This document shows positions 7,171 to 60,075 of a stretch of DNA of 64,000 nucleotides, in pieces. This DNA is from an uncultured Candidatus Saccharibacteria bacterium. GTDB taxonomy: Bacteria > Patescibacteriota > Minisyncoccia > Phycocordibacterales > UBA2100. Under the pieces are notes generated by a model. The model did no database searches and had not been told where the DNA came from. It was given only the letters and a program-made list of their open reading frames with translations. Every line of letters starts with the position of its first letter. Within the stretch, counting starts at the first letter, position 1. Location of the stretch: the NCBI GenBank assembly GCA_964594735.1, contig CAZQMS010000003.1, positions 30,043 through 94,042 of the forward strand, read 5' to 3'. A program made the position numbers and the translations under genes.

Positions 7171-7284
7171 GGTATACCCCGTGAGATAAGGCGCCGCCAT
7201 GCGGCACACCGGGGGCACGTTTTTCGCGCCATTATTGCTTTCAAATTCATACAGAATGAAATATCTCACGGGGTATACTGCGCC
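7171..7284. repeat. Inverted-arm element family 1, copy A (GGTATACCCCGTGAGATAAGG ... 69-nt spacer ... ATATCTCACGGGGTATAC)
   Basis: 17-bp perfect inverted repeat GTATACCCCGTGAGATA. The right arm ends 12 nt before the ATG at 7286. Similar arms occur at 10808-10906 and 33040-33143. Confidence 0.55.
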
Positions 7285-7902: not shown

Positions 7903-10272
7903 ATGCGCATGGCAAATAACACAACGGCTCGCAAGGGAACGGCGAGCGAGGTAAAGGTTCCCGCATCAGATAGCGCTGCACAGCGTGTGTACAAGAAGTA
8001 TCTCCCCAATATTCAAAAAAGAGACGGCCGCATCGTGCCGTTTGAGTTCGACAAGGTCGTCTCTGCTATCAGGAAGGCGATGATAGCGTCCAACGAGGGC
8101 TCCGAAGACGAAGCGGTTGTCGTCGCACACAAAGTCGCGGGAGAAATGATGCGCATTGCCAAGACCTACAAGAATTTCCTCCCCACCGTCGAGGGGTGCC
8201 AAGACGAAGTCGAGCGACAGCTCATGCTCTCGGACTACGTGACAACTTCTAAGAACTACATTCTCTACCGCGCGAAGCGTGCCGAAGACCGCAGAGAGCA
8301 GGGTTCTGTGCCGGAACACGTCAAAAAGCTCGCCGAAGAGTCGAAAAAGTACTTCAAGAGCAACCCCCTCGGTGAATTCGTCTACCTCCGCACGTACGCG
8401 CGCTGGATAGAGACCGAGCAGCGCCGCGAGACATGGATTGAGACCGTGGACCGGTACATCGGCTTTATGAAAGAAAACCTCGGCAAGAAGCTTACCGAGA
8501 AAGAGTACGCAGAAGTCCGCGAGGCGGTGCTCAAGCAGGAAATCATGCCATCGATGCGCGCGATGCAGTTTGCGGGCGAGCCGGCGCGCAAGTGCAACAC
8601 CTGCTTCTACAACTGCTCCTTCACCGCACCGGTGAAGCTCGAGGACTTTGCCGAGATTATGTACCTCTCGATGCAGGGGACGGGTGTGGGCTACTCAGTA
8701 GAGAGTCAGAACATCGAGCAGCTTCCGCAGATTCAGAAGCAGACTGGCGTGAAGCTCCCGAAGCACGTCATCGCCGACTCCAAAGAGGGTTGGTGCGAGG
8801 CGCTCACACTCGGGCTCAAGACGTGGTATTCCGGCAAGGACATCGAGTTTGACTACTCGATGATTCGACCGGCCGGTTCGCGCCTCAAAACCATGGGCGG
8901 CAAAGCATCGGGTCCTGAGCCCCTCCGCAATCTCCTCGATTTCTCGCGCGAGCGCATCTTGCGCCGTCAGGGACGTCGGCTCCGCACCATCGATGCGCAC
9001 GACATCATCTGCAAAATAGGTGAGTGTGTCGTCGCGGGTGGCGTGCGTCGCTCGGCGATGATAAGCCTCTCCGACCTCGACGACGTAGAGCTCCGCGATG
9101 CCAAGAAGGGGCAGTTCTACCTCACCGACGGTCACCGCGCGATGGCCAACAACTCTGCCGTATACGAGAGCAAGCCGACCAACGCGGAACTCATGGATGA
9201 ATGGGTGGCGCTCATGAAATCGGGCTCGGGCGAGCGCGGAATCTTCAACCGCGGCTCACTCGAGAAGACGATGCCCGTGCGCCGCTTCAAGTACCTCGAG
9301 AAAAAGCACGCGAAAAGCGGCATGAAGGGCTACATCGGGCAGGTGGGTACCAACCCGTGCGGCGAGATCATCCTGCAGTCGAAGCAGTTCTGCAACCTCT
9401 CTGAAGTCATCGCGCGTGCGGGCGATACGGAGAAGACGCTTCTGCGCAAAGCGAAGCTCGCGACGCTCCTCGGCACCTACCAGTCGACGCTCACCAAGTT
9501 CAACTACATCTCAAAGGATTGGCAGGAGAACTGCGAAGCGGAGCGCCTCCTCGGCGTGTCCATCACGGGTCAGTGGGACTGCGAGACAGTGCGCAATCCC
9601 AAGGTGATGCGCAAAATGCGCGACCTCGCGATTAAGACCAATGCAGAGTACGCGAAGCGATTCGGCGTCAATGCCTCGACCTCGATTACGTGCGTGAAGC
9701 CATCGGGTACGGTGTCGCAGACATTTGATTGCTCTTCGGGCATCCACCCGCGTCACTCGCAGTACTACATCCGCCGCGTCCGCATCTCGGCGACCGACTC
9801 GCTCTTCAAGATGGTGCGCGACCAGGGAATCCCGCACTACCCGGAAGTCGGGCAGACGATGGGCGAGGCCAACACCTACGTGCTCGAATTCCCCGTGAAA
9901 GCACCAGAGGGCTCGGTCTACAAGAACGACCTCACCGCGCTCGAGCAGCTTGAGTACTGGAAGTCGGTCAAGCTCAACTTCACCGAACACAATCCGTCTG
10001 CGACTATTTCGGTCGGCGAAGAAGAGTGGGTCGCCGTCGTCTCGTGGCTGCATGAAAACTGGGACATCATCGGCGGTCTCTCATTCCTTCCGCGCGAGAA
10101 TCATGTGTACCGACTCGCTCCCTACGAGACCATCGACAAGAAGCGCTACGAAGAGCTCGCAAAAGCATTCCCGAAAATCGACTACTCAAAGCTCGTCATC
10201 TACGAGAGGACCGACGAGACTGAGCAGAAGAAGGAGCTCGCCTGCGCCGGCGGCACGTGCGAAATAGTCTAA
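7903..10272 (+). CDS. nrdJ: Adenosylcobalamin-dependent (class II) ribonucleotide reductase
   Basis: 789 aa: N-terminal ATP-cone-like segment, large RNR catalytic barrel motifs (GTNPCGEI; NLSEV; VKPSGT), and a C-terminal CAGGTCE redox tail. Confidence 0.9.
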   Translation: MRMANNTTARKGTASEVKVPASDSAAQRVYKKYLPNIQKRDGRIVPFEFDKVVSAIRKAMIASNEGSEDEAVVVAHKVAGEMMRIAKTYKNFLPTVEGCQDEVERQLMLSDYVTTSKNYILYRAKRAEDRREQGSVPEHVKKLAEESKKYFKSNPLGEFVYLRTYARWIETEQRRETWIETVDRYIGFMKENLGKKLTEKEYAEVREAVLKQEIMPSMRAMQFAGEPARKCNTCFYNCSFTAPVKLEDFAEIMYLSMQGTGVGYSVESQNIEQLPQIQKQTGVKLPKHVIADSKEGWCEALTLGLKTWYSGKDIEFDYSMIRPAGSRLKTMGGKASGPEPLRNLLDFSRERILRRQGRRLRTIDAHDIICKIGECVVAGGVRRSAMISLSDLDDVELRDAKKGQFYLTDGHRAMANNSAVYESKPTNAELMDEWVALMKSGSGERGIFNRGSLEKTMPVRRFKYLEKKHAKSGMKGYIGQVGTNPCGEIILQSKQFCNLSEVIARAGDTEKTLLRKAKLATLLGTYQSTLTKFNYISKDWQENCEAERLLGVSITGQWDCETVRNPKVMRKMRDLAIKTNAEYAKRFGVNASTSITCVKPSGTVSQTFDCSSGIHPRHSQYYIRRVRISATDSLFKMVRDQGIPHYPEVGQTMGEANTYVLEFPVKAPEGSVYKNDLTALEQLEYWKSVKLNFTEHNPSATISVGEEEWVAVVSWLHENWDIIGGLSFLPRENHVYRLAPYETIDKKRYEELAKAFPKIDYSKLVIYERTDETEQKKELACAGGTCEIV

Positions 10273-10276
10273 AGAT

Positions 10277-10376
10277 CGTACCCGTGCATATTTTGGAGTA
10301 CTAAATTTTCCTGCTGGGAAATTTCTCGGCTCTCGCGCCGTCGCGCTCGAGAGCCTCCAAAATATGCGCGGGTACG
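10277..10376 (+). repeat. Nested-palindrome element family 2, copy 1 (starts 5 nt after the nrdJ stop)
   Basis: 22-bp outer inverted repeat CGTACCCGTGCATATTTTGGAG / CTCCAAAATATGCGCGGGTACG (1 mismatch) encloses an inner hairpin AAATTTTCC-TGC-TGGGAAATTT and the core CGCGCCGTCGCGCTC, which is shared with the copy at 15538. Confidence 0.55.
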
Positions 10377-10414
10377 TGCCGCCAGCGCAGGCGGAAGAGG
10401 GAAATGGAAAAGGA

Positions 10415-10443
10415 AAAGCCCCAGCCGATTTGGCCGGGGCTTT
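10415..10443 (-). terminator. Rho-independent terminator of the minus-strand small gene
   Basis: On the minus strand: AAAGCCCCGGCC-AAATC-GGCTGGGGCTTT followed by TTCCTTTTCC. Confidence 0.6.
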
Positions 10444-10461
10444 GCTTCAGATAGTGCTCCG

Positions 10462-10716
10462 CTAAATCGTTTCGAGGTCGACGATGTCGTCGGGGCGCTG
10501 CAGTTGGACAAAGGTTACGATTGCCGCCTCTCCGACAGTCTCGTTAAGGTTCTCGAGTTTCTGAACGACGCCGTTTACTCGGAGAACCCCGTAGGAAAAC
10601 TCCTGGCCCTGGAGGCGTGCCTCAAGGAGAATGCGCCGCAGAGTCATTCCTCCATACCCGACTTGTGTGATTTTTTTTGTGGTGCCGTCGAGATAGCTGC
10701 ATTTTACGGTGGGCAT
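10462..10716 (-). CDS. Small beta-grasp-like protein (84 aa; TGS/ThiS-like fold suspected)
   Basis: Strong SD (CAGGAGAAAAGCA-ATG) for the start at 10716, with a terminator downstream. The overlapping antisense plus ORF 10504-10824 is rejected. Confidence 0.55.
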   Translation of the reverse strand: MPTVKCSYLDGTTKKITQVGYGGMTLRRILLEARLQGQEFSYGVLRVNGVVQKLENLNETVGEAAIVTFVQLQRPDDIVDLETI

Positions 10717-10727
10717 TGCTTTTCTCC

Positions 10728-10748
10728 TGTGCAAGTCAGACTTGCACA
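10728..10748. promoter_or_regulatory. Perfect palindrome TGTGCAAGTC-A-GACTTGCACA between the promoter and SD of the 10462-10716 gene (candidate operator)
   Basis: 10+1+10 perfect inverted repeat. A second palindrome TTGACGC-TGG-GCGTCAA lies at 10760-10776 and includes a TTGACG -35-like hexamer. Confidence 0.4.
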
Positions 10749-10807
10749 AGAATGCAACGGTTTGACGCTGGCGTCAAATTTGGTAAAATGTGCCTCTGCA
10801 CTAGGCA

Positions 10808-10906
10808 GTCGCCCCGTGAGATAAGGGCTTCGGAGTTGGCTATTGTTCGGCTTGATAAAGGAATCCGAATACCGGCACCGATTCAGAATCTGTTATCTCA
10901 TGGGGA
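10808..10906. repeat. Inverted-arm element family 1, copy B (GTCGCCCCGTGAGATAAGGG ... 65 nt ... TTATCTCATGGGG); its right arm lies inside the rnpB 5' region
   Basis: Arms match copies A and C. The spacer contains the rnpB P1 5' strand. Confidence 0.5.
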
Positions 10907-11372
10907 GGAAAGTCCGGACACAGGCTTCGCAAGAAGCAGAAAGGTAGCGGGTAACGCCCATCCGCCGCGAGGCGAGAGATGCGAGCAGTGACGCCAACTC
11001 CGAAAGGGGAAGGGTTCCTTCGGGAACAATCATGTCGTAAGGCATGGGTGAAACGGCAAAATTCTTACCCCTGTGCAAGACCGTGACCCATGGGATAATG
11101 CGCTCCGAGTATCTTCGGGTAGCTGCTTCGAGAATGCAGTTCGGAGATGTATAGGTAACCGGAATGCGTTATCCCACGGGTAGAGTCGCTTGAGGTGTGT
11201 GGCAACACACATCCCAGATACATGACGGCCACCGGTTTTGTCTGCCGCAGGCATTTGCAAGGTCGAGAATCTCGAATGAGGTGGGGGACAATCCTTCGCT
11301 CTCGCTCAGGGTCCTCGATTTTGTAGCCACCTGCGGTGGACACAATCGGGACAGAATCCGGCTTATCGGTGC
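10875..11372 (+). ncRNA. rnpB: RNase P RNA (bacterial type A)
   Basis: Conserved blocks GGAGGAAAGTCCGGAC (P4 5' strand), GGTAACGCC, GTAAGG..GGGTGAAACGG and GACAGAATCCGGCTTATCGG (P4 3' strand / 3' end). P1 is GCACCGAT (10875-10882) with ATCGGTGC (11365-11372). A terminator-like hairpin follows at 11380-11413. The 5' boundary is uncertain, and P3 appears very short. Confidence 0.85.
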
Positions 11373-11551
11373 AGAGCAGAGAGCGAAGCAGAGATGCTTC
11401 GCTCTTTCGCTTCCGAATGAGCAAGTCGACTCTGGCACAGCCAAAGAGGGTGCAGAAAACAGACCCCGCGGGGGGTCCGTTTTCATATATGTACTCCACA
11501 GTGCAAACGCGGGGTGGTCGCCTGTTATCGCGTGCTACCATAAATGGCACT

Positions 11552-13825
11552 ATGAATATCCGCCACTATTTGGTGCCAGATGCGATTATTCGCGTATGCA
11601 TGCTCGCGCTCGCCGCGCTCATCCCAATCTTTTTTGTACCCTTCGCATGGGCGACAGCTGTCCAATCCAAACTTCTTCTCGTCGCACTTGTGGTACTCGC
11701 GGCTACGGGCGCGTACGCCTATGCACGCTACCTCGATGGCTCGCTGCGATTTCCTAAAAGCATTCTGGCACTCACGGCGCTCGCGCTCCCCATCATCTAC
11801 GCCGCATCGGCGCTTCTCGCAGGTGCGCCGCCCACATCGTACGTAAGTGGGACGGGCGAACAGGACACTGTCGCGGGAATGGTGCTTCTGTACGCCGTGT
11901 TACTTCTCGGCGCGCTCGCTTTCCAGAATGTGCGCGACTCACTCGTCGCATTTTTCCGCGCGCTCATTGCGGGTTCGCTCGTCCTCATGCTCATCCAGAC
12001 ACTGCACGTCATCTTTCCCGGCTTTACGCTCGGTGTACTCGGTATTCCGACGGCCAATGTGTTCGGTTCGTGGCACGAGGTGGGTATCATGGCAGGCCTC
12101 GGGCTTTTCCTTGCCATTGCACTTGCCAAGACTCATATCGCGGAAGGCGTCTGGAGGTGGGTACTCATTGCTCTCGGAGTTCTCAGCGCGTTCATGCTTG
12201 TGGTCGTGAACATGGTAGATGTGTGGTTCGTCTTTGGCGGACTCCTGATTGCGTACGCTGCGTACAACAAATTTGTTGCGCATCCGAGCGGTGCGCTTAC
12301 GTCCCTGGTTATTCCGGGCGTTCTCGGTATCCTCGCGCTCGGTGCTGGTTTCGCGGCTTCTCAGATATATGAAATCCTCCCTGCGCGCATGCAGGTCCTG
12401 CAGGTGGAAGTGCGGCCTTCATGGCAGGGGACGTTTGCCATCGGTATGGAATCGATACAGGGCACGCGCACCGCACTCCTCGGGAGTGGTCCGAACACGT
12501 TTACGAAACAGTGGAGTCTCTACAAGCCGCTCGGCGTCAACCAGACAGAGTACTGGAATCTCGATTTTTCGAGTGGCATCGGCTCTATCCCCACGACATT
12601 TGTGACCGTGGGAGTGCTCGGCCTACTCGCGTGGGCGGCACTGCTGCTCGCGCTCGTATGGACACTGTGGAGAGCGCTCGTGAGGCGCGCAGAGCGCACG
12701 CCCGTCTTTGAAACGGCACTTCTCGGAGCGACGTATCTCATTGCCTTCCACATTCTGTATGTGCCGACCTTTTCACTCTCTGTACTCACGTTCCTCATGC
12801 TTGGCGTCGTGGCGGCAGCGCGCGGTTCATACGTCTGGCCTGTAAGTTTGACCTATGACACGTGGCGCGTCGCGGTGAGGACTTTCGCGTTCGCGCTCGC
12901 CATACTCCTGTTTGTACTTGGAGCGCTCGCGACAGTGCGTGCAGTCGTTTCAGACTTGCTTGTAAACAGGAGTGCCTACATCTACAACACCGACGCAAAC
13001 GCTGTACGGGCACTATCGCTCGTCCAGTCCGCGTTGGTCATCTACTCCAACAACGATCGCGCGCATCGTGCGGCGGTCGAACTCGGTCTCATCCGACTCG
13101 GAGAATTGGTCGCCTCGGGTGCAACAGATGCGGAGACGACCGCAGCCCTCCAAGCATCGCTCGAGACGACAATCCAGCACGGTCTCACGGCCGTTTCGAT
13201 AAACAACGGCGCGTATCAGAATTGGCTCGCGCTCGCAGGTCTCTACCGCAGCCTCGCGGGTGCGGGTGTCGAGGGGGCCTATGAGAATGCGCGCGATGCG
13301 TACACAAAGGTCTACGAGGGCAATCCCAGCAATCCTATTCCTCTCGTTCAGATGGCGCAGCTCGAATTCGCGCTCGGCAATGAAGAGGCGGCACTCGTGC
13401 TTCTCGGCCAAGCGCTTGAACTCAAAGCTGACCTCGCTGCTGCGTACCTGCTTCGTTCGCAGGTCTATGCCTCGCAGGATAAGAGTGATGATGCGATACG
13501 CGACGCTGCGGCGGTGGTGCAGATTGCGCAGCAAGACGCGCTTGGCTGGTTCAATCTGGGCGCAATTCTCTACGATGCCGAAATCTACACTGACGCGGTA
13601 CCGGCTCTCGAAAATGCTGTTGCACTGCAAAACGATTACGCAAACGCCCTTTTCCTACTCGGGCAATCCTACAGAGAGCTCGGCAGGAATCAGGATGCGC
13701 TCGTAGTGCTTGAGCGAGTCTCCCAGCTCAATCCTTCGGATGCGTCGCTTGAAGGCATTATTGAAGCGGTACGGGCCAGTCTTGCAGCCGAAGATGAACA
13801 AGTAGACGAAGAGACTGCTGAGTAG
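11552..13825 (+). CDS. O-antigen ligase (Wzy_C)-like polytopic membrane protein with C-terminal TPR repeats
   Basis: About 12 TM helices in the N-terminal 450 aa, then Ala/Leu-rich TPR-like repeats. The start was moved to ATG 11552 so it no longer overlaps rnpB. Confidence 0.65.
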   Translation: MNIRHYLVPDAIIRVCMLALAALIPIFFVPFAWATAVQSKLLLVALVVLAATGAYAYARYLDGSLRFPKSILALTALALPIIYAASALLAGAPPTSYVSGTGEQDTVAGMVLLYAVLLLGALAFQNVRDSLVAFFRALIAGSLVLMLIQTLHVIFPGFTLGVLGIPTANVFGSWHEVGIMAGLGLFLAIALAKTHIAEGVWRWVLIALGVLSAFMLVVVNMVDVWFVFGGLLIAYAAYNKFVAHPSGALTSLVIPGVLGILALGAGFAASQIYEILPARMQVLQVEVRPSWQGTFAIGMESIQGTRTALLGSGPNTFTKQWSLYKPLGVNQTEYWNLDFSSGIGSIPTTFVTVGVLGLLAWAALLLALVWTLWRALVRRAERTPVFETALLGATYLIAFHILYVPTFSLSVLTFLMLGVVAAARGSYVWPVSLTYDTWRVAVRTFAFALAILLFVLGALATVRAVVSDLLVNRSAYIYNTDANAVRALSLVQSALVIYSNNDRAHRAAVELGLIRLGELVASGATDAETTAALQASLETTIQHGLTAVSINNGAYQNWLALAGLYRSLAGAGVEGAYENARDAYTKVYEGNPSNPIPLVQMAQLEFALGNEEAALVLLGQALELKADLAAAYLLRSQVYASQDKSDDAIRDAAAVVQIAQQDALGWFNLGAILYDAEIYTDAVPALENAVALQNDYANALFLLGQSYRELGRNQDALVVLERVSQLNPSDASLEGIIEAVRASLAAEDEQVDEETAE

Positions 13826-13839
13826 CGCGCCTGCGCCGT

Positions 13840-15525
13840 ATGATAGCGCTGACGGAACGCGCATTTAAATTTCTCTCGAGTGAGGTGCGGGGTCTACATG
13901 CCGCAGCGTACGTCCTGGCGTCGGCAGCGCTCCTCTCGTCGCTCCTCGCGCTCGTGCGCGACAGGCTCCTTGCCAATGAGTTTGGCGCATCCGCGTTGCT
14001 CGACATCTACTACGCGGCGTTTCGTATCCCGGATCTCCTCTTTGTGGCGACCGGGGCGCTCGTGTCCGTGTACATACTCATTCCCGAACTCGTGAGGCGC
14101 AGCGATAGGGAGCAGCGTGACTATATAGATACGGTCGTGCTCGGGTTTTCTGCGCTTGCGGTGGTGCTCTCTGCGGCGCTAGCTTTTTTCGCACCCGAGA
14201 TCCTTGGCAAATTTTTCCCAGCGTACATAGGGGGTGAGGCGAGTCTCCTTGTCGACATCACACGCATACTGCTCATCCAGCCGATATTGCTGGGCCTTTC
14301 AAACATATTGGCTGGTATCACGCAGGTGAAGCACCGATATGCTATCTATGCGCTTTCGCCGCTTCTCTACAACATCGGCATCATCCTCGGTATCGTGTTC
14401 TTCTACCCAGCATGGGGACTTCACGGGCTCGCCTTTGGTGTGGTACTAGGCGCGCTGCTGCACATGCTCATACAGGTCCCGTCTGCTCTCTCGGACGGCT
14501 TCTTTTTGCGCTGGCCTCGCTTTGTGGAGCCGCGGGCGCTCCTACACACGGCACGAGTCTCAGTGCCGCGTGCGCTCGCGCTCTCGATGAATCAACTTGC
14601 ATTTCTGGGCCTTGTCGCACTGGGCTCCACGCTTACGGTGGGATCGGTCGCGGTGTTTATGTTTGCCTTCAATCTGCATGCGGTGCCACTCGCAATTATT
14701 GGCGCATCATACTCGGTGGCGGCGTTCCCGACACTCGCGCTCGCGCTCTCGCGCGGCGAGAGAAGCGAATTCATCCGACACGTTGCCACCGCTGCGCGAT
14801 ACGTCCTTTTCTGGTCTGTCCCGGCGAGCGCACTCATCTTGGTACTTCGCGCGTACATCGTCCGCGTAATACTCGGCACGGGCGCATTCGACTGGACCGA
14901 TACGCGCCTCACTGCTGCTGTCTTTGCGCTCCTTTCATTTTCGCTCGTGAGCCAGGGAATTATGCTACTTTTGGTGCGCGGATATTACGCTGCGGGTCGC
15001 ACCTTTGTGCCGCTCATCGTGTCGGCGGGCATGGCGCTTCTTACACTCATACTTGCAGTCGTATTCCTGGGTGCATTTGCAGACCCTGGATTTAGAGAGG
15101 GTGTAGAGCAGTTCCTCAGAATAGCGGAGCTTCCCGGGACCAATGTCCTTGCGCTCGCTTTTGCGTTTACGCTCTCGAGCCTTGTTGGTACAGCATTTCT
15201 CGCGTTTCTCTTTGAGAGGAACTTCAAAGGCTTTGCTGCTCTCGTAAGCCCGGCAGTCTATCAGAGTATCGCAGCAGCGGTGTGCGCGGCGGTGGCGGCC
15301 TACGTCACGCTCACTGTCATCGGGATTTTCGCCGATACATCATCGACGCTCTCGGTCTTTCTTACGGGTCTCGGCGGCGGCATCGTCGGTATCTGCGCTG
15401 CGGGGCTTACGTATTATGGCTTTGGAAGCCGCGAATATGCGGAGACGTTTGCCTCGGTGCGCGCCCGGCTCTGGCGTACGCAGCCGAAGGAGGAGGTTAC
15501 GCTTGTCTCCTCGGCGGAAGAGTAA
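13840..15525 (+). CDS. murJ: Lipid II flippase MurJ/MviN
   Basis: 561 aa, 14-TM MOP-superfamily architecture with conserved MurJ N-terminal motifs (NEFG.SALLDIYYAAFRIPDLLF). Confidence 0.85.
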   Translation: MIALTERAFKFLSSEVRGLHAAAYVLASAALLSSLLALVRDRLLANEFGASALLDIYYAAFRIPDLLFVATGALVSVYILIPELVRRSDREQRDYIDTVVLGFSALAVVLSAALAFFAPEILGKFFPAYIGGEASLLVDITRILLIQPILLGLSNILAGITQVKHRYAIYALSPLLYNIGIILGIVFFYPAWGLHGLAFGVVLGALLHMLIQVPSALSDGFFLRWPRFVEPRALLHTARVSVPRALALSMNQLAFLGLVALGSTLTVGSVAVFMFAFNLHAVPLAIIGASYSVAAFPTLALALSRGERSEFIRHVATAARYVLFWSVPASALILVLRAYIVRVILGTGAFDWTDTRLTAAVFALLSFSLVSQGIMLLLVRGYYAAGRTFVPLIVSAGMALLTLILAVVFLGAFADPGFREGVEQFLRIAELPGTNVLALAFAFTLSSLVGTAFLAFLFERNFKGFAALVSPAVYQSIAAAVCAAVAAYVTLTVIGIFADTSSTLSVFLTGLGGGIVGICAAGLTYYGFGSREYAETFASVRARLWRTQPKEEVTLVSSAEE

Positions 15526-15537
15526 AGAGGAGCTCGC

Positions 15538-15629
15538 GGTGGCCGCGGTGGACAGCACGAGATTTTTCTACTGAAAAATCTCTTCACGTTCGCGCCGTCG
15601 CGCTCACGAATCTGTCCACCGCGGCCACC
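15538..15629 (+). repeat. Nested-palindrome element family 2, copy 2 (starts 13 nt after the murJ stop)
   Basis: 18-bp perfect outer inverted repeat GGTGGCCGCGGTGGACAG / CTGTCCACCGCGGCCACC; inner hairpin GAGATTTTTC-TAC-TGAAAAATCTC; core CGCGCCGTCGCGCTC identical to copy 1. Confidence 0.55.
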
Positions 15630-15678
15630 GACTCGCTGGGAGTGTGAAGAGGAAACTTATCTGTTAGGATGACGTGCC

Positions 15679-17469
15679 ATGGCCTCCCACATACGGAATT
15701 TCAGCATTATCGCGCATATCGACCACGGCAAGTCCACGCTGGCTGACCGCATGCTTGAGGTGACGCAAACAATTGAGCCGAGGCGCATGCAAGAGCAGGT
15801 GTTAGACAGAATGGACCTCGAGCGCGAGCGCGGCATCACCATCAAAATGCAGCCGGTGCGTATGACTTGGAAGAAAGGCGGGGAGGAGTACGTCATCAAT
15901 CTCATTGACACGCCCGGTCACGTGGATTTTTCATACGAAGTGTCCCGCGCGCTTACGGCGGTCGAGGGTGTCGTGTTGCTCGTTGATTCTACGCAAGGGA
16001 TCGAAGCTCAGACACTCTCAGTCCTCTCTGTCGCGCGCGAGCTCGGGCTCGTTGTCGTGCCCGTCGTGTCAAAAATAGACGCGCCAGCCGCCCGTGTCGC
16101 CGAGATTACGAATGAACTCGCGATGCTGCTTGGCTGCGAGGAGGAAGACGTATTACCAGCTTCGGGAAAGACGGGGCAGGGCGTGACCGCGATACTCGAT
16201 GCAATTGTAGAGCGTGTCCCGCCGCCGCGCGGCAGCGGCGCGGCGCAGGCACTGGTCTTCGACTTCGGGTACTCCGACCATCGGGGCGTCATCATCTATT
16301 GCCGCATCTTCGGCGGGGAGATTGCGCGTGGCGATGCGCTCAAACTTGTCGCAGCAAATGCGCCGTTTAACGCACTTGAGGTGGGTGTCCTCACGCCAGA
16401 GGAGTCTCCACGTGAGAAACTCCTCGAAGGAGAGATTGGGTACATCGTGACAGGCATCAAGAAGCCGGGCATTGCTTCGGTCGGCGACACAGTGACCTCG
16501 GCACGAAAGCCCGCGCCGGCGCTCCATGGGTATCAGACGCCGACGCCGGTCATATGGGCATCTGTGTATCCGGAGAGCCAGGATGATCTTGCGCTTTTGC
16601 GGCAGTCGCTTGAAAGACTTCGCTTGTCGGATTCCTCGCTCTCTTACGAAGAGGAGTCTTCCGGCATCATGGGTAAGGGGTTTCGCTGTGGTTTCTTGGG
16701 AATGCTGCACCTGGAGATTGTTATTGAGCGCCTACGGCGTGAGTTTACACTTGAGCTGGTGGTCACGATGCCCACGACTGTGTACGAGGTGACGCACCTA
16801 AATGGCACCGTGGAAGAAGTGTACTCACCCGCGCGCTTTCCAGACGAAGGAATGGCGAAACGCGTGCGTGAGCTGTGGGCCGATATCACCATCATGGCAC
16901 CTCCCGAGAGCCTGGGCGGTATTTCTCAGCTCCTTTACGAACACGAGGGTGAGGTGGGGGACACAGAGACGCTCGCCGATGGCAAAGCTGCGGTACATGC
17001 AAAGATGCCGCTTCGCGAGCTGATGCGTCAATTTTTCGACAAGCTCAAGAGCGTATCGAGTGGGTACGCATCACTATCGTACGAACTAATCGGGCTCCGC
17101 GATGCAGATGTGATGCGGCTCGATGTACTCGTGGCAGAAGAGCCCGTGCCGGCATTCGCGCGCATCGTATCGAAGCGTCGGGTACAGCAGGAGGCCGAAG
17201 CGATGGTAGAGAAGCTCGAGAAGCTCCTACCGCGGCAGATGTTTGAGCTCAAGATTCAGGCGAAAGCCAACGGACGGATTATCGCGTCGCGGCGCCTCTC
17301 GGCGATGAAAAAAGACGTCACGCAGCACATGTATGGTGGCGACATCACGCGCAAGATGAAACTGCGCGAAAAGCAGAAGAAGGGCAAGAAGAAGATGCTC
17401 GCGCGCGGTAGCGTAGAAATACCACCAGATATTTTCCTGAAAGTGGTGCGCGACGGTGGAAGCGACTAA
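15679..17469 (+). CDS. lepA: Translation elongation factor 4
   Basis: NFSIIAHIDHGKSTLADR G1 motif, DTPGHVDF, and a LepA-specific C-terminal domain. Confidence 0.95.
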   Translation: MASHIRNFSIIAHIDHGKSTLADRMLEVTQTIEPRRMQEQVLDRMDLERERGITIKMQPVRMTWKKGGEEYVINLIDTPGHVDFSYEVSRALTAVEGVVLLVDSTQGIEAQTLSVLSVARELGLVVVPVVSKIDAPAARVAEITNELAMLLGCEEEDVLPASGKTGQGVTAILDAIVERVPPPRGSGAAQALVFDFGYSDHRGVIIYCRIFGGEIARGDALKLVAANAPFNALEVGVLTPEESPREKLLEGEIGYIVTGIKKPGIASVGDTVTSARKPAPALHGYQTPTPVIWASVYPESQDDLALLRQSLERLRLSDSSLSYEEESSGIMGKGFRCGFLGMLHLEIVIERLRREFTLELVVTMPTTVYEVTHLNGTVEEVYSPARFPDEGMAKRVRELWADITIMAPPESLGGISQLLYEHEGEVGDTETLADGKAAVHAKMPLRELMRQFFDKLKSVSSGYASLSYELIGLRDADVMRLDVLVAEEPVPAFARIVSKRRVQQEAEAMVEKLEKLLPRQMFELKIQAKANGRIIASRRLSAMKKDVTQHMYGGDITRKMKLREKQKKGKKKMLARGSVEIPPDIFLKVVRDGGSD

Positions 17470-17475
17470 CGAGCT

Positions 17476-17577
17476 TTAGGAAAGAAGGCCAAAGAGGAAC
17501 TCCGGCAGGCCCGGCGCAAAAAAGAGCACCATGGCGACTATGATGAGGACGGCAATGAAGCCCCACGCGACCTTCAT
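17476..17577 (-). CDS. Possible tiny hydrophobic peptide (33 aa; alternative 45-aa form starting at 17613)
   Basis: MKVAWGFIAVLIIVAMVLFFAPGLPEFLFGLLS: a single TM helix, no clear SD. Below the ORF-track threshold, so speculative. Confidence 0.2.
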   Translation of the reverse strand: MKVAWGFIAVLIIVAMVLFFAPGLPEFLFGLLS

Positions 17578-17650
17578 AAACTTGCGTGTACGGTGATGGA
17601 AAAGGAAGCTCATAGGATGTGTCCCATCAATATAATGCTAGGATACGAAA

Positions 17651-18025
17651 ATGGCAATCCGAGAGCGGCATGCCGTCCTGGCAAGACTCTTCTGGCGACG
17701 GTTTGGGATACTTGTACTGCTTGTTCTGATACTTGTTGCGACGCTCGCGGTACTCAGCGTGTACCGCAAGGAGTACGATTCGAGAGTACTGCGCGAGCAA
17801 GCGGAAATGCGGCTCGCGGATTTGCAGAAGCAAGAAAAGAGTCTCTCCGAGCACATCAATGGCCTGCGCACCGACCGAGGCAAGGAAGAGGTGTTGCGGG
17901 AGCAGTACGGTGTCGGCTGGGAGGGTGAAGAACTCATCGTGCTCGTTGAGCCCTCACAGGCCGCGCCTATCCCCGAGCCCACCGGCATGCGGGAATGGAT
18001 GAAGAAATTTCTGCCGTTTTGGTGA
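17651..18025 (+). CDS. Septum-formation-initiator-like (FtsB/DivIC family) small membrane coiled-coil protein
   Basis: N-terminal TM helix (ILVLLVLILVATLAVLSVY), then a coiled-coil (LREQAEMRLADLQKQEKSLSEHINGLR). Confidence 0.5.
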   Translation: MAIRERHAVLARLFWRRFGILVLLVLILVATLAVLSVYRKEYDSRVLREQAEMRLADLQKQEKSLSEHINGLRTDRGKEEVLREQYGVGWEGEELIVLVEPSQAAPIPEPTGMREWMKKFLPFW

Positions 18026-18036
18026 GGAGGGCGCTC

Positions 18037-18134
18037 TGTCCCGGTGCTCTTTTCAGGTACGAAATCTTTCTGCTGAAAGATTTCTCCGCGCTCGCTCCGC
18101 CGAGCTCGCGAGCTCTGAAAACTGCACCGGGACA
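18037..18134 (+). repeat. Nested-palindrome element family 2, copy 3 (starts 12 nt after the preceding stop)
   Basis: Outer inverted repeat TGTCCCGGTGC / GCACCGGGACA; inner hairpin GAAATCTTTC-TGC-TGAAAGATTTC (perfect 10 bp). The right flank ACTCGCTGGAGGTGGGGAAAT resembles the right flank of copy 2. Confidence 0.55.
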
Positions 18135-18173
18135 CTCGCTGGAGGTGGGGAAATGCGATACATTACAGACGTT

Positions 18174-18244
18174 GCGGGATTAGTTTAGTGGTAGAACGAC
18201 TGCTTCCCAAGCAGTAAATACGGGTTCGATTCCCGTATCCCGCA
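18174..18244 (+). tRNA. tRNA-Gly (anticodon CCC)
   Basis: Acceptor GCGGGAT/ATCCCGC; D arm GTTT..GAAC; anticodon stem ACTGC/GCAGT with loop TTCCCAA; T arm ACGGG-TTCGATT-CCCGT; discriminator A. Confidence 0.85.
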
Positions 18245-18290
18245 CAGCCAGACACGAGTTGTAGAATCGTGCTCGGGACAACCGTGCTAG

Positions 18291-18644
18291 TTAGAGGTAT
18301 TTCTTGCCGTATGCGCGCACGGCGGCCAAGACGTCTTCAAGGGCTTTGCCCCTTGGTGTGAGACGATACTCGACGCGCGGCGGGAGGCGCTTGGATGCCT
18401 TGCGGGCGATTATCCCCGCCTTGGTGAGTCGCCGGAGCGTCTTGGTGAGCGTCCGAGTGCTCATACCGAGACTCTCGTCGAGTTGTCCAAAGCGCATCGA
18501 TCCGCTCTGGAGGTCTCGCAGAACGAGAAGAGAACAGGGGTCTCCGATAAGGTCGGCCATTTTGGCGATAGGGCACGAGCGACAGAGCTCGTTGCGTTGC
18601 TTTTGTGTGCGCAGCATGGATACTGAGCACGGTATCATGGTCAT
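18291..18644 (-). CDS. HxlR-family winged-helix transcriptional regulator
   Basis: CPIAKMADLIGDPCSLLVLRDL...MRFGQL...TLTKTLRRLTKAGIIARK...RVEYRLTPRG is a typical HxlR/DUF24 HTH. The true start may be the internal ATG at 18617. Confidence 0.8.
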   Translation of the reverse strand: MTMIPCSVSMLRTQKQRNELCRSCPIAKMADLIGDPCSLLVLRDLQSGSMRFGQLDESLGMSTRTLTKTLRRLTKAGIIARKASKRLPPRVEYRLTPRGKALEDVLAAVRAYGKKYL

Positions 18645-19048: not shown

Positions 19049-19120
19049 GCCCCCGTAGCTCAATGGATAGAGCAATCCCGTCCTAAGGGAGAGATGTGGG
19101 TTCGATTCCTGCCAGGGGCA
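19049..19120 (+). tRNA. tRNA-Arg (anticodon CCT)
   Basis: D arm GCTC-AATGGATA-GAGC; anticodon loop GTCCTAA; T arm GTGGG-TTCGATT-CCTGC; acceptor GCCCCCG/CAGGGGC with one C-A mismatch. A GTGCGTGG-TAAGCTG-CCACGCAC terminator hairpin abuts its 5' end. Confidence 0.7.
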
Positions 19121-19121
19121 C

Positions 19122-19381: not shown

Positions 19382-19675
19382 ATGGAACACGAAGAGATGC
19401 TCAAAGAGACGTACCGTCTCACGCAGGACAACAATCGCATGCTCCGCTCCATGCGCCGTCACGCCTTTTGGGGCGGGATAGTCCGCATGGTCATCTACGC
19501 GGCGCTCCTCCTTATCCCCGTGTGGTTCTACTTTACGTACATGGCGCCAATCGTCGAACAGATGATGGCGACTGTGCAGCAGATACAAGGCACGGGAGCG
19601 CAGGCTCAGGCGCAGTTCTCAAGTTTCCAGGAATTGCTCAATAAGGCGCAGAGCATGTTCGGCGGGGCGGAGTAA
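19382..19675 (+). CDS. Small membrane protein (97 aa)
   Basis: ATG 3 nt after the preceding stop; one TM helix (IVRMVIYAALLLIPVWFYFTY); Q/A-rich tail. Confidence 0.45.
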   Translation: MEHEEMLKETYRLTQDNNRMLRSMRRHAFWGGIVRMVIYAALLLIPVWFYFTYMAPIVEQMMATVQQIQGTGAQAQAQFSSFQELLNKAQSMFGGAE

Positions 19676-19680
19676 GACGT

Positions 19681-19709
19681 TTGAGAATTGCGCCTAAGCC
19701 AGGTATATT
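19681..19709 (+). promoter_or_regulatory. Sigma70-like promoter of tRNA-Phe (-35 TTGAGA, 17-bp spacer, -10 TATATT)
   Basis: Hexamers at 19681-19686 and 19704-19709. The tRNA starts 10 nt downstream. Confidence 0.5.
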
Positions 19710-19719
19710 GGTGCGCGTA

Positions 19720-19792
19720 GCCGAGGTAGCTCAGTTGGTAGAGCATTCGCCTGAAGAGCGAAGGGTCACCAGTTCGATCCTGGTCCTCGGCA
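19720..19792 (+). tRNA. tRNA-Phe (anticodon GAA)
   Basis: Acceptor GCCGAGG/CCTCGGC; D arm GCTC-AGTTGGTA-GAGC; anticodon loop CTGAAGA; T arm ACCAG-TTCGATC-CTGGT; discriminator A. Confidence 0.9.
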
Positions 19793-19972
19793 CAAAATAC
19801 ACGAAGTGATTTTGGGTCGGGGAGCAGGATTGGGAAGGGGTCGGGAAACGGGAGCGACCAATGTTTCTTAACGGTAATCCGTTCTAGAAACATGAAGTAC
19901 CCTCGTGGCATTTCCCGTGGAGGAAGGCAGCCGCGAAGCGGCGTTGGAAAACCGTGGGTTTCCAAGCCCCTA

Positions 19973-31818: not shown

Positions 31819-33054
31819 ATGCATGAGAAGACCTTCCCCGATGGATTTTTGTGGGGAGCCGCTACCGCCGCATACCAAGTAGAAGGGGGGATAGAGAATT
31901 GCGACTGGGCCAAGGCGGCGCGCGAGGGTAAAGTGCCGGCGTGCGGGATGGCCTGCGACCACTACAATCGCTACGAAGCCGATTTTGATATTGCAAAAGA
32001 GCTCGGGCACACCTGCCACCGCCTTTCTATAGAATGGGCGCGCATCGAGCCGGAAGAGGGGAAGTGGGACGAGAAGGAGGTCGAGCACTATAGGAAAGTG
32101 ATTGAAGCGCTGCGCGCGCGGCACCTCAAGCCGTTCATTACACTCTGGCACTTTACATTGCCACAATGGTTTGCAGACAAGGGCGGATTCGAGCACCCGG
32201 ACGCGCCGAAGATTTTTGCGCGCTACTGTGCTTTTATTGCGGAGAAATTTGGCAACGACTGCCGCCACTTCGCGACGATGAATGAGCCGGGCGTCTACGT
32301 ATCCAATGGGTGGAGGCGGGGGAGCTGGCCGCCGTTTCGTGCGTGGCCGGGCATCGGCGCGATCAGAGCAGTTCCCGGCCATCGCGAGTTTAGCGCTCAG
32401 CACATCTCGTGGCGCAACATCCCGGCATATTTCCGTATGATGCGGCGCTTAGCTGAGGCGCACAACGTTGCGTACGATGCGATGAAGGCCGCGGGCTTCG
32501 GCGTGGAAGTGGGGCTCGTGCACCAAGTAATCCTTTTCCACGCGAATGCTAATCCACTCAATAAGCTGCTCGCAGCGGTGATGAACTGGCACTGGACGCA
32601 CTCATTCATTCGTCGCGTGCACCACAAATGCGATTCTATCGGGGTCAATTACTACCTGCACAAAAAGTTTGGTGACACGCGTGTGTACGACAAAACAGAT
32701 ATGGGCTGGGATGTGTACCCCGAAGGCCTCTGCGACGCGCTTCTTATGCTGAAGCGCTACGGGAAGCCACTGTGGGTGAGCGAGGCAGGCGTGGCAGATG
32801 CCGGAGACCGCATCCGCGCCGACTACATAGAGCGACTCATCCGCTGCATGCACACGGCTATCGAGAAAGGTGCCGACGTGCGCGGCTACATGTACTGGTC
32901 GCTCCTCGACAACTACGAATGGGCGCACGGCTTTGAGAAGCGATTTGGGCTCGTGGCGGTTGACTACGCGACGCAAGAGAGAAAGGTGCGTCCGTCGGCG
33001 TACGTATACAAAGCAATAATCGAGCGCAATGGCTTAGTAGACCCCGTGAGATAA
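31819..33054 (+). CDS. Glycoside hydrolase family 1 beta-glucosidase
   Basis: N-terminal FPDGFLWGAATAAYQVEGG; catalytic-acid region ...TMNEPGVYV...; nucleophile region YITENG-like VSEAGVAD; C-terminal motif WSLLDNYEWAHGF. Confidence 0.85.
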   Translation: MHEKTFPDGFLWGAATAAYQVEGGIENCDWAKAAREGKVPACGMACDHYNRYEADFDIAKELGHTCHRLSIEWARIEPEEGKWDEKEVEHYRKVIEALRARHLKPFITLWHFTLPQWFADKGGFEHPDAPKIFARYCAFIAEKFGNDCRHFATMNEPGVYVSNGWRRGSWPPFRAWPGIGAIRAVPGHREFSAQHISWRNIPAYFRMMRRLAEAHNVAYDAMKAAGFGVEVGLVHQVILFHANANPLNKLLAAVMNWHWTHSFIRRVHHKCDSIGVNYYLHKKFGDTRVYDKTDMGWDVYPEGLCDALLMLKRYGKPLWVSEAGVADAGDRIRADYIERLIRCMHTAIEKGADVRGYMYWSLLDNYEWAHGFEKRFGLVAVDYATQERKVRPSAYVYKAIIERNGLVDPVR

Positions 33055-33143
33055 GCCAATTCGATGACTCACACGATCGTCGCGGCCGGCGGGTTTGTTC
33101 GCAGCAAATAGTCGGAGGGAGTATCTCATGGGGTAGAATAAGG
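33040..33143. repeat. Inverted-arm element family 1, copy C (GACCCCGTGAGATAAGCC ... 63 nt ... GTATCTCATGGGGTAGAATAAGG)
   Basis: The left arm contains the GH1 stop codon. The right arm ends 12 nt before the ATG at 33146, the same spacing as copy A. Confidence 0.55.
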
Positions 33144-59676: not shown

Positions 59677-60075
59677 AGCTACAATCGCAGCTCCTTCGCA
59701 GCGATGCCCGTATGCACCGGGGAGGCTGCGTGCTCTGCACTACAGCCTCCCCGGCTTACATGATGAGTACGTCGCGTTCCGACTTGGAGCGCTCGCTGTG
59801 TGAGTGCATGAGAAGAAGAATTATGTGTCGAACGGAAGTGTCCGCCGGGTGCTAATGATTATCGCTGATAATCCGTCGGGGTCTTTCGCCCAGCCCCAGT
59901 TTTGCCTACAAGATACGTGCGAACCAAAACTGGAGCTGGGCTGCCCCGCAATGTGCTATGCGTCCAGATGCAAACTCTATCCGGACTAACGTGAATCACG
60001 GATGAAGATGTGTCGGTACCCGTGACACACGGGTATACGCAATACACAATATTGAGAGCACAATCGAATCAGGAA

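Follow-up and report, generated by a model that had tools for sequence, protein, structure and literature searches.

The 64-kb window analysed here (the whole stretch of 64,000 nucleotides from contig CAZQMS010000003.1 of an uncultured Candidatus Saccharibacteria bacterium) carries nrdJ, a TPR protein gene, murJ, lepA, an FtsB-like gene and tRNA genes, and between them three plus-strand copies of one family of short nested palindromes. Copy 1 (10277-10376) follows nrdJ, whose stop codon ends at 10272, and scores 98.7 bits with covariance model R2. Copy 2 (15537-15630) lies between murJ (stop ending at 15525) and lepA (start at 15679), and copy 3 (18037-18134) between the FtsB-like gene (stop ending at 18025) and tRNA-Gly (18174). 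The first-pass annotation had placed three elements of common architecture at these plus-strand sites, 5, 13 and 12 nt from stop codons. Repeat finder, inverted-repeat finder, pattern matching and folding all bear this out and the distances are correct; only the inverted repeat of copy 2, given as starting at 15538, begins at 15537. The copies are clustered within 8 kb, with none in the remaining 56 kb, and two covariance models run without filters found no fourth copy in the window.

The repeat finder grouped the plus-strand segments 10297-10348, 15554-15605 and 18056-18107 into one family with a 52-nt core at 75-77% identity, and a 58-nt core alignment of the three copies has zero gaps from its first to its last column. 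Searched with a 27-column pattern built on the first hairpin's invariant positions, the window gives exactly these three sites, with 0.03 expected by chance. Copies 1 and 2 share an exact stretch, TCGCGCCGTCGCGCTC, which had been reported as a 15-mer; the sharing is real, but the stretch is a 16-mer. On both sides of the core, the inverted-repeat finder recovered outer arms of 22, 19 and 20 nt that are 95%, 100% and 90% complementary and have 56-58 nt between them, and the sequences of these outer stems are mutually unrelated among the three copies.

Every window copy folds as a three-way junction of an outer stem, an AU-rich hairpin and a GC-rich hairpin (-58 to -64 kcal/mol; z = -7.9 to -9.8 versus shuffles). 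The outer stem P1 has 19-22 bp and is followed by the unpaired GYAC of J1. P2 is the AU-rich hairpin of 9-10 bp with a C-G closed loop UGCU or UACU, and P3 consists of 3 bp, a UC/UC internal loop and then GCGC-CGYC-GCGC with the loop CGUC or CGCC. In copy 1, P1 pairs 10277-10297 with 10356-10376, J1 reads GUACU, P2 spans 10303-10324 (loop UGCU) and P3 spans 10330-10351, with 3 bp, the UC/UC internal loop and GCGC-CGUC-GCGC. Copy 2 pairs 15537-15555 with 15612-15630 (19/19) in P1 and has P2 at 15559-15582 (loop UACU) and P3 at 15587-15608. In copy 3, P1 pairs 18037-18056 with 18115-18134, P2 lies at 18061-18084 (loop UGCU) and P3 at 18089-18110, where it reads GCUC-CGCC-GAGC, with one pair compensated from G-C to U-A. 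The flanks of two copies are also alike: copy 2 is preceded by AGAGGAGCTCG (15526-15536), a motif common to copy 3 and to many copies in relatives with the consensus RGAGG-GCGCTC, and is followed by ACTCGCTGGGAG (15631-15642; consensus CTCGCTT/G), while copy 3 has GGAGGGCGCTC (18026-18036) on its left and CTCGCTGGAGGT (18135-18146) on its right, all on the plus strand. Resemblance of the right flanks of copies 2 and 3 had been noticed from the start; this was accurate but incomplete, as the left flank (GAGG..GC.CTC) is common to them as well.

The family extends well beyond the window. Outside it, the readable sequence consisted of loci of 2-21 kb around matches (cited below as L with a number) rather than whole genomes, and organism labels are those given by the depositors. 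One genome per species was scanned with a pattern that fixes 20 bases; of the 44 loci it gave, 30 hold copies confirmed by the model, 33 full-length ones in total. All confirmed loci are labelled as Patescibacteria or candidate phyla radiation (CPR) bacteria (Paceibacteria, Parcubacteria, Adlerbacteria, Moraniibacteria, Minisyncoccia, Saccharibacteria or Patescibacteria) or as unclassified 'bacterium'. The 14 non-CPR pattern loci (Streptomyces, Proteobacteria, Acidobacteria and others) are chance matches, none of which the model matches, and two pattern scans of viral contigs gave 0 and 8 loci, none a member by model. Altogether, pattern scans and covariance models, the latter a search already proposed in the first-pass annotation, gave about 45 further copies beyond the window, all in Patescibacteria/CPR assemblies. 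The nrdJ-TPR-murJ-lepA block of the window is syntenic with that of the metagenome-assembled genome (MAG) CAZPGE01 (L032; MurJ 78% identical), and a metagenome search with MurJ gave 80 related loci comprising 903 kb with only 10 distinct copies. Ten copies in 903 kb, together with occurrence in many lineages, make this a phylogenetically broad but low-copy family. Its units are 94-100 nt long in the window and reach about 165 nt elsewhere, with a further outer helix. One candidate for a composite element, two identical inverted copies in the metagenome contig Ga0100381_1001169 (L119, 1-8952), was discarded: the contig equals its own reverse complement, a perfect 8,952-nt foldback in which an assembly artefact has doubled one copy.

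In a 34-sequence alignment, 35 of 37 pairs show both-sided change, and 88.9% of cells are paired, versus 55% in column shuffles and 40-52% when the partners were slid. The helices are real. The compensatory changes described by the first-pass annotation are therefore confirmed, but they do not alone show selection at the RNA level. Conservation peaks at the centre of the element, in a 58-nt tip with GYAC, C-UGCU-G, UC/UC around GCGC-CGUC-GCGC, and AGCC, and is lowest at its ends. The window copies hinted that the two hairpin loops kiss, through P2 loop position 2 and P3 loop position 3; this was set aside, the loops being almost invariant in the larger set.

As a general trend, copies lie directly behind genes. 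For about two thirds of them, a co-oriented reading frame ends 2-25 nt before the element, and in GC-rich relatives of the window the stop codon is followed almost directly by RGAGG-GCGCTC, then by P1 and then by CTCGCTT. The first-pass annotation had asked whether every copy follows a stop codon in the same orientation; this holds for the two thirds, but about six copies lie in opposite sense between genes, a few between divergent or convergent genes, and one 25 nt upstream of recA (L038). In addition, at least six copies lie inside genes as continuous reading frames, always with the reverse complement in the mRNA sense. In-frame copies occupy one surface loop of TsaD in L015, L019, L034, L134 and L136 and a site between the two helicase lobes of RecG in L022, in each case in opposite orientation to the gene. 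These TsaD and RecG genes have Pfam domains on either side of the insert, and cutting 31-33 codons gives a normal-length loop, which makes both arms part of the insert. Translations of the element occur in eight of the 120 closest TsaD homologues, in at least two reading frames and with internal frame changes.

The TsaD loop between GGPxIS and LPRPM is also an insertion hotspot in its own right: 58 of 118 parsed close homologues have 12-52 extra residues there, which belong to at least seven unrelated, mostly palindrome-encoded families (e.g. KGPRIS..GPDHLS, RPLxDLQ and KKSSGLLAR..GEARLFS). Near-identical TsaD genes with different inserts at one place are found in L134 (10620-10960), L137 (3620-3960) and L138 (660-1000).

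Several roles connected with the position of the element were considered and rejected. A stop-codon read-through or recoding signal does not fit, as all three stop codons occur and the post-stop frame is closed within copy 3. A small peptide gene inside the element would lack conserved start and stop positions, and a promoter for downstream genes in the right flank would lack consistent -35/-10 spacing.

The orientation of the element was also compared with base composition. With S denoting the plus strand of the window and R its reverse complement, the strand that is locally richer in G is S for 36 of 45 copies, all four in-gene genome copies among them, as judged by GC skew over 6-12 kb, a noisy replication proxy that is itself correlated with gene orientation. 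The entire window is G-rich on the plus strand. Orientation thus follows this proxy of replication direction no less closely than it follows transcription, and the two are confounded. At the three orthologous sites discussed below, the orientation of the element is kept though adjacent tRNA genes flip.

Several observations indicate that the family moves. Units of about 140 nt occur on four contigs of the MAG JAUYLB01 with 83-94% mutual identity, and a fifth, in the related MAG JAUYJR01, is 78-87% identical to these. The identity spans P1 and the further outer helix; the sequences on either side are unrelated (17-45%). The outer stem thus belongs to the unit and looks 'variable' only between old copies or lineages: its arms are conserved among recent copies of one MAG and unrelated between the window copies and between lineages. 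The window copies, only about 75% alike, are accordingly old. Their sites are occupied in a patchy manner among relatives. At the nrdJ 3' end, the window, L059 and L069 have a copy and the two closest relatives, L032 and L066, lack one. Between murJ and lepA, a copy is present in the window, in L032 and L066 and, weakly, in L059; ten or more relatives, whose spacers measure 20-60 nt, have none there. Between ftsB and tRNA-Gly, the window, L058 and L061 carry a copy and L066 does not. Synteny of the flanking genes holds in relatives with or without the element, and the murJ-lepA copy is orthologous in L032 and L066, whose MurJ is 78% identical to that of the window. Besides that, the TsaD genes of L134 and L137, near identical on both sides, differ by a replaced segment of about 120 nt, which in one is this element and in the other an unrelated palindrome. 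A mobile element favouring gene ends had been one of the two readings offered by the first-pass annotation, and it is backed by the near-identical dispersed units, the filled and empty orthologous sites, the in-frame copies in TsaD and RecG and the position of most copies 2-25 nt after a co-oriented stop.

Copy 1 records a further change at the DNA level. Its stem goes on for 20 bp (95%) into the nrdJ coding sequence: the 5' arm of this outer extension (10239-10258, plus strand) lies inside the last nrdJ codons and pairs with 10374-10393, and this 3' arm is an inverted copy of the window's own nrdJ end in 19 of 20 bases. The whole folds as one stem of about 41 bp with the nrdJ stop codon in a 21-nt bulge. 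In L032 and L066, the nrdJ coding end is as in the window and the downstream complement, that is the 3' arm, is absent. Adjacent host DNA has thus been copied into the palindrome, the outcome that hairpin-templated synthesis (template switching) gives.

The two strands of the element differ in their pairing. Pairs switch nearly always between Watson-Crick types, with one-sided G·U intermediates almost absent and G·U accounting for about 1-2% of pairs. The S strand has 21 G·U versus 50 A·C, and its P1 mismatches are 68 pyrimidine-pyrimidine versus 10 purine-purine. Folded as R, 40 of 46 copies are more stable, by a mean of 6.1 kcal/mol, and G·U pairs number 81 on R versus 29 on S; the tolerated non-canonical pairs (G·U/G·T and G·A) fall on R. 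Read on this strand, three features turn G·A-rich: P3's conserved UC/UC loop, a 3x3 mismatch that recurs in P1, and the loop GCG-CUC ... CU-CGC at the base of that stem. Since the alignments were fitted to S, the bias towards R is, if anything, understated. The usual mutational asymmetry brings more C-to-T changes on the coding or leading strand. As such asymmetries predict the opposite bias, we read the mismatch asymmetry as selection for folding of the R strand, in a DNA or an RNA form, which sequence cannot tell apart. By established thermodynamics, DNA hairpins too tolerate G·T and G·A better than other mismatches, and RNA is therefore not needed to explain the asymmetry.

Searches for a known RNA gave no counterpart. 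At the gathering score, Rfam 15 reports only four tRNAs in the window and leaves the element unmatched on either strand; at E <= 10, the region 10200-10460 gives weak matches, mostly to the neighbouring terminator hairpin and none near the gathering score. The earlier statement that the element is not REP, BIME, ERIC or Correia is right. The 3' arms of the window copies run into GTGCCGCC, ACTCGCTG and CTCGCTGG with no T-run of an intrinsic terminator, and the 11 terminator-like calls made in 10000-18400 all lie off the copies. A downstream GGAAAUGG-like motif was rejected as part of the element, being the A-rich lead of a native terminator that is found at empty sites too. A hammerhead-type core reads, for example, CUGANGA ... 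GAAA ... UH. A hammerhead or other self-cleaving ribozyme was rejected: the junction strands GYAC, CUCNG and AGCC, or GGCU, CNGAG and GURC on the reverse strand, match no such core and vary between copies, and the Rfam searches gave no ribozyme family.

Among known repeats, the behaviour of the element is closest to that of the Rickettsia palindromic elements (RPE). These are reportedly palindromes of about 100-150 bp, as Ogata et al. are said to have described in 2000, that sit between genes as well as in-frame at protein surface loops and also in structured RNA genes, with compensated stems and without a known transposase or clear target duplication. Our element is likewise a palindromic unit of about 100-150 bp at non-homologous dispersed sites, in-frame in conserved genes. 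The likeness is one of kind, by description; at this taxonomic distance no likeness in sequence is expected. RPE families are confined to one genus, whereas the core described here spans many CPR lineages, has a defined three-way-junction tip with two different hairpins and strongly prefers one orientation just after stop codons.

In its logic, the proposed recognition of one strand in its folded form, the element is closest to REP/RAYT and integron attC sites. REP sequences are simple hairpins of 20-40 nt with a 5' GTAG or CGTC tetranucleotide, present in tens to hundreds of copies and not inside genes, and in the REP/REPIN systems RAYT, an IS200-like Y1 enzyme, recognises the hairpins strand-specifically on single-stranded DNA. 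Shared features are palindromes between genes, often after genes, and conserved tetranucleotides by hairpins (here GYAC before P2 and CGUC in the P3 loop). However, our element is nested, longer and low-copy, its GYAC and CGUC motifs stand in other positions, and the Y1 genes of CPR contigs have other palindromes. attC sites, 57-141 bp long, are imperfect palindromes that follow open reading frames in a single orientation, which is linked to replication, and they are recognised as a folded single strand. Placement after reading frames in one orientation and the better folding of one strand are common to both, but attC keeps its outer core sites (RYYYAAC / GTTRRRY) around a variable centre, and the element does the reverse. 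attC-type core sites are absent from its outer arms, no integrase was seen in the window region examined, and the flanking genes (nrdJ, the TPR protein gene, murJ, lepA and the FtsB-like gene), syntenic in relatives, are not cassettes.

The shape recalls T-shaped hairpins of parvoviruses, such as the inverted terminal repeats of adeno-associated virus, and other substrates of HUH endonucleases, with a long stem capped by two small, different palindromes; these hairpins are recognised in the form of folded single-stranded DNA. This resemblance is one of form, and we claim no sequence relation: the viral hairpins are genome ends, whereas the element is a dispersed chromosomal repeat, and no Rep-like gene was found. 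[quoted passage not shown] Unlike these, the element shows no target-site duplication, no parent insertion sequence with matching ends was found in loci of 8-21 kb, and conservation is highest in the centre and least at the ends, the opposite of a transposase-bound MITE. Palindromic mobile elements of organelles, such as the GC clusters of yeast mitochondria and the repeats of Volvox and other green algae (PMC2670323), are similarly short, spread in compact genomes including coding and RNA genes and occur as several families per genome; our element is bacterial and has no sequence in common with them. What sets it apart is the combination of a conserved centre with free ends, a fixed three-way junction and spread over a very large bacterial radiation. 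A text search of open-access papers in PubMed Central and of bioRxiv preprints found no account of such CPR elements, and we regard this small palindromic DNA repeat family of Patescibacteria as previously undescribed.

We consider it somewhat more probable than otherwise that the element is a non-autonomous nested-palindrome mobile DNA repeat of the RPE/REP kind, of which the window copies are old, diverged members; it behaves more like selfish mobile DNA than like an RNA terminator. The first-pass interpretation, which had left the choice between a structured 3'-UTR (3' untranslated region) RNA and a small mobile element, is partly supported. The active form would be DNA, folded as a single strand that is most likely R, and the element's conserved tip may be the recognition module for a putative trans-acting enzyme. 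The outer stem would be required only as a stem, so that its sequence could drift while pairing is kept by compensation or by hairpin-templated copying, which can take in adjacent host DNA, as it may have done in copy 1. Copies would persist where they are least harmful, just after stop codons in very short spacers or in-frame in surface loops. The after-stop position might thus mainly reflect survivors of a selective filter, in spacers of a few tens of nt where the start signals of the next gene are needed. Besides moving, the element may quite well have a secondary, exapted effect on mRNA 3' ends, though the explanation does not need it.

Several observations weigh against a mobile DNA repeat. 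Target-site duplications, for which the first-pass annotation had advised a test, were not seen: five aligned copies have no direct repeat of >=3 nt at their ends, and they define no exact excision footprint. The CGCTC...CTCGC flanks recur at different sites and so seem to belong to the element and not to be duplications. The loci of 2-21 kb around matches yielded no mobilising enzyme. Genes for IS200-like, RAYT-like Y1 transposases do occur in CPR contigs (L048 7033-7704, L123 119-703, L081 7-594 and L132 6410-6931), those of L048, L123 and L081 with perfect simple palindromes at or near their ends. The Y1 gene of L048, 3 kb from copies of the element, was rejected as mobiliser, since the gene and its homologues are flanked by simple palindromes of their own (arms TTGCCAAGGAC/GTCCTTGGCAA on both sides in L048), and within these four loci the model finds no copy of the element adjoining a Y1_Tnp gene. 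As a side observation, the L048 arm TTGCCAAGGAC/GTCCTTGGCAA would translate to AKGP and resembles the KGPR-type family of TsaD inserts. The copy number is low, with three in the 64-kb window and ten in the 903 kb of relatives; many copies are related by descent, so the counts overstate independence; and the skew-based orientation bias shares the noise of its proxy. Further difficulties lie in age and placement: the window copies, about 75% alike, have near-perfect stems and keep their orientation at orthologous sites, which would suit a selected function as well. The gene whose stop precedes the element runs in the element's direction for about 24 copies and against it for about six, and the left end sits tight against the stop, often with the conserved RGAGG-GCGCTC flank; a transcript role under selection would explain this tight, co-oriented placement at least as simply.

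These last points lead to the main rival, an S-strand structured RNA of the 3'-UTR, that is a stability or processing element, for example one that blocks 3' exonucleases or is acted on by a double-strand-specific RNase, for which spread would be secondary. It would account for the co-orientation of about 24 of 30 tandem-context copies with the preceding-stop gene, for starts 2-25 nt past the stop, many with RGAGG-GCGCTC ... CTCGCTT, and for constant orientation at three orthologous sites despite tRNA flips nearby, as well as for a core conserved across CPR lineages, covariation in all helices and the almost perfect stems retained by old copies. Nevertheless, we hold it to be unlikely that a 3'-UTR RNA, terminator or processing element is the primary nature of the family, as the first-pass annotation had suggested. 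Covariation is of the Watson-Crick type, with G·U scarce (1-2%); the mismatches on S are destabilising (A·C and pyrimidine-pyrimidine), and the opposite strand folds better in 40 of 46 copies. There is neither a U-tract (T-run) nor a terminator-like call, and copy 1 has a separate canonical hairpin further downstream. About a quarter of the copies are not in a 3'-UTR sense position. About six copies are antisense and intergenic, some lie upstream of genes (recA, L038), and at least six are of opposite sense in coding sequences; and the element is absent at the same sites in close relatives.

If the functional molecule were instead an RNA of the R strand, a small structured RNA or cis-antisense element whose internal loops would form tandem G·A pairs, the greater stability of R, with its G·U pairs and purine-purine mismatches, would follow. 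The P3 loop, the loop at the base of P1 and the 3x3 mismatch in P1 would then be G·A-rich motifs common in protein-binding RNAs, and the TsaD and RecG copies do put R in mRNA. We find this improbable, since no promoter or terminator for such an RNA was found around the copies, most copies would need transcription counter to their flanking genes, Rfam has no match on either strand, and G·T and G·A are the mismatches that DNA hairpins, too, tolerate best. A site of the host chromosome, that is a cruciform or hairpin bound by a replication, repair or nucleoid protein and kept by selection rather than selfishly, would suit the correlation of orientation with local GC skew (36 of 45 copies), the conservation of the tip over a very wide range of lineages and the few copies that last long at orthologous sites. 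We rate this, too, as improbable: presence at orthologous sites is patchy among close relatives, copies sit in protein loops and are exchanged for unrelated palindromes, one MAG contains a near-identical burst, and the spacing is irregular, with three copies within 8 kb and none in the other 56 kb.

The window and its relatives contain other palindromes and rearrangements. In L059 (~11830-11900) and L069 (~11800-11900), the conserved N-terminal NFSIIAHIDHGKST motif at the lepA start is broken by an in-frame palindrome, CCCCGGTTAGAAACGC TTT GCGTTCTAACGGGG, another palindrome inside an essential gene. A further palindromic repeat of the window (7172-7278 and 33037-33074, arms GTATACCCCGTGAGATA / TATCTCACGGGGTATAC) has CCCCGTGAGATAAGG in common with the extended P3 helix of the RNase P RNA (10813-10827); since the first-pass annotation called the present elements a second family, this repeat is probably its first. 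This class A RNase P RNA (10804-11238) scores 63.8 bits, below the Rfam gathering score of 100, and is missed in a standard scan, while its orthologue in L066 has 327 nt and 115 bits. It is about 110 nt longer than the L066 RNA because two of its helices hold long palindromic extensions (~10821-10901 in P3, and 11086-11181). Between nrdJ and the RNase P RNA gene, about 390 nt (10394-10780) have no aligned counterpart in L066; within them lie a 95-codon minus-strand frame (10462-10749) that matches nothing in Pfam and a T-tailed minus-strand hairpin (10415-10443). Long palindromes at 19603-19700 and 59887-59942, one of them directly upstream of tRNA-Phe, are unrelated in sequence to the element and give weak covariance-model scores on both strands. 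A tandem array of seven 48-nt units (16 codons; 61-86% identity) lies at 533-886, apparently in a coding region.

The tRNA genes next to copy 3 are tRNA-Gly CCC (18174-18245), tRNA-Arg CCT (19049-19121) and tRNA-Phe GAA (19720-19793), all on the plus strand of the window. Their order is kept in the relatives L054-L069, but each is flipped singly while the protein-coding blocks between them stay collinear. In the order Gly, Arg, Phe, all three are plus in the window and minus in L066; they are minus, plus, plus in L054, L058 and L069, minus, plus, minus in L059, plus, minus, plus in L061 and minus, minus, plus in L062. Compared with L066, the inverted segments of Gly and Arg end within 1-3 nt of the tRNA ends, and that of Phe extends beyond its two ends by about 20 and 9 bases, a pattern in the alignments that suggests inversion across the inverted repeat of the acceptor stem.

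It is a more tentative idea, and one we hold to be doubtful, that the tip is the recognition site of a system for single-stranded DNA mobilisation or palindrome propagation that is widespread in CPR. Such a system, with sister families of palindromes, would remodel minimal genomes by adding loop peptides to essential proteins such as TsaD, helices to RNase P RNA and copies of host flanks, and perhaps by flipping tRNA genes through the same hairpin-driven template switching.

The genomes of CPR bacteria, or Patescibacteria, are among the smallest and most streamlined in bacteria, and the usual view is that they hold little mobile DNA. The family described here alters this picture, as its core occurs in many CPR lineages, lies within transcripts directly after stop codons and is tolerated in-frame by essential proteins such as TsaD and RecG. 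Given this CPR-wide core and in-frame tolerance, selfish palindromes look like a regular source of variation in protein loops and RNA helices. Together with its sister families, the element explains 'odd insertions' in CPR proteins and pushes RNase P RNA under the Rfam threshold, and such palindromes can lead gene callers and assemblers astray. As a lineage marker, the covariance model is ready for use, and the fixed tip with its free stems offers a handle for seeking the recognising enzyme by phylogenetic profiling.

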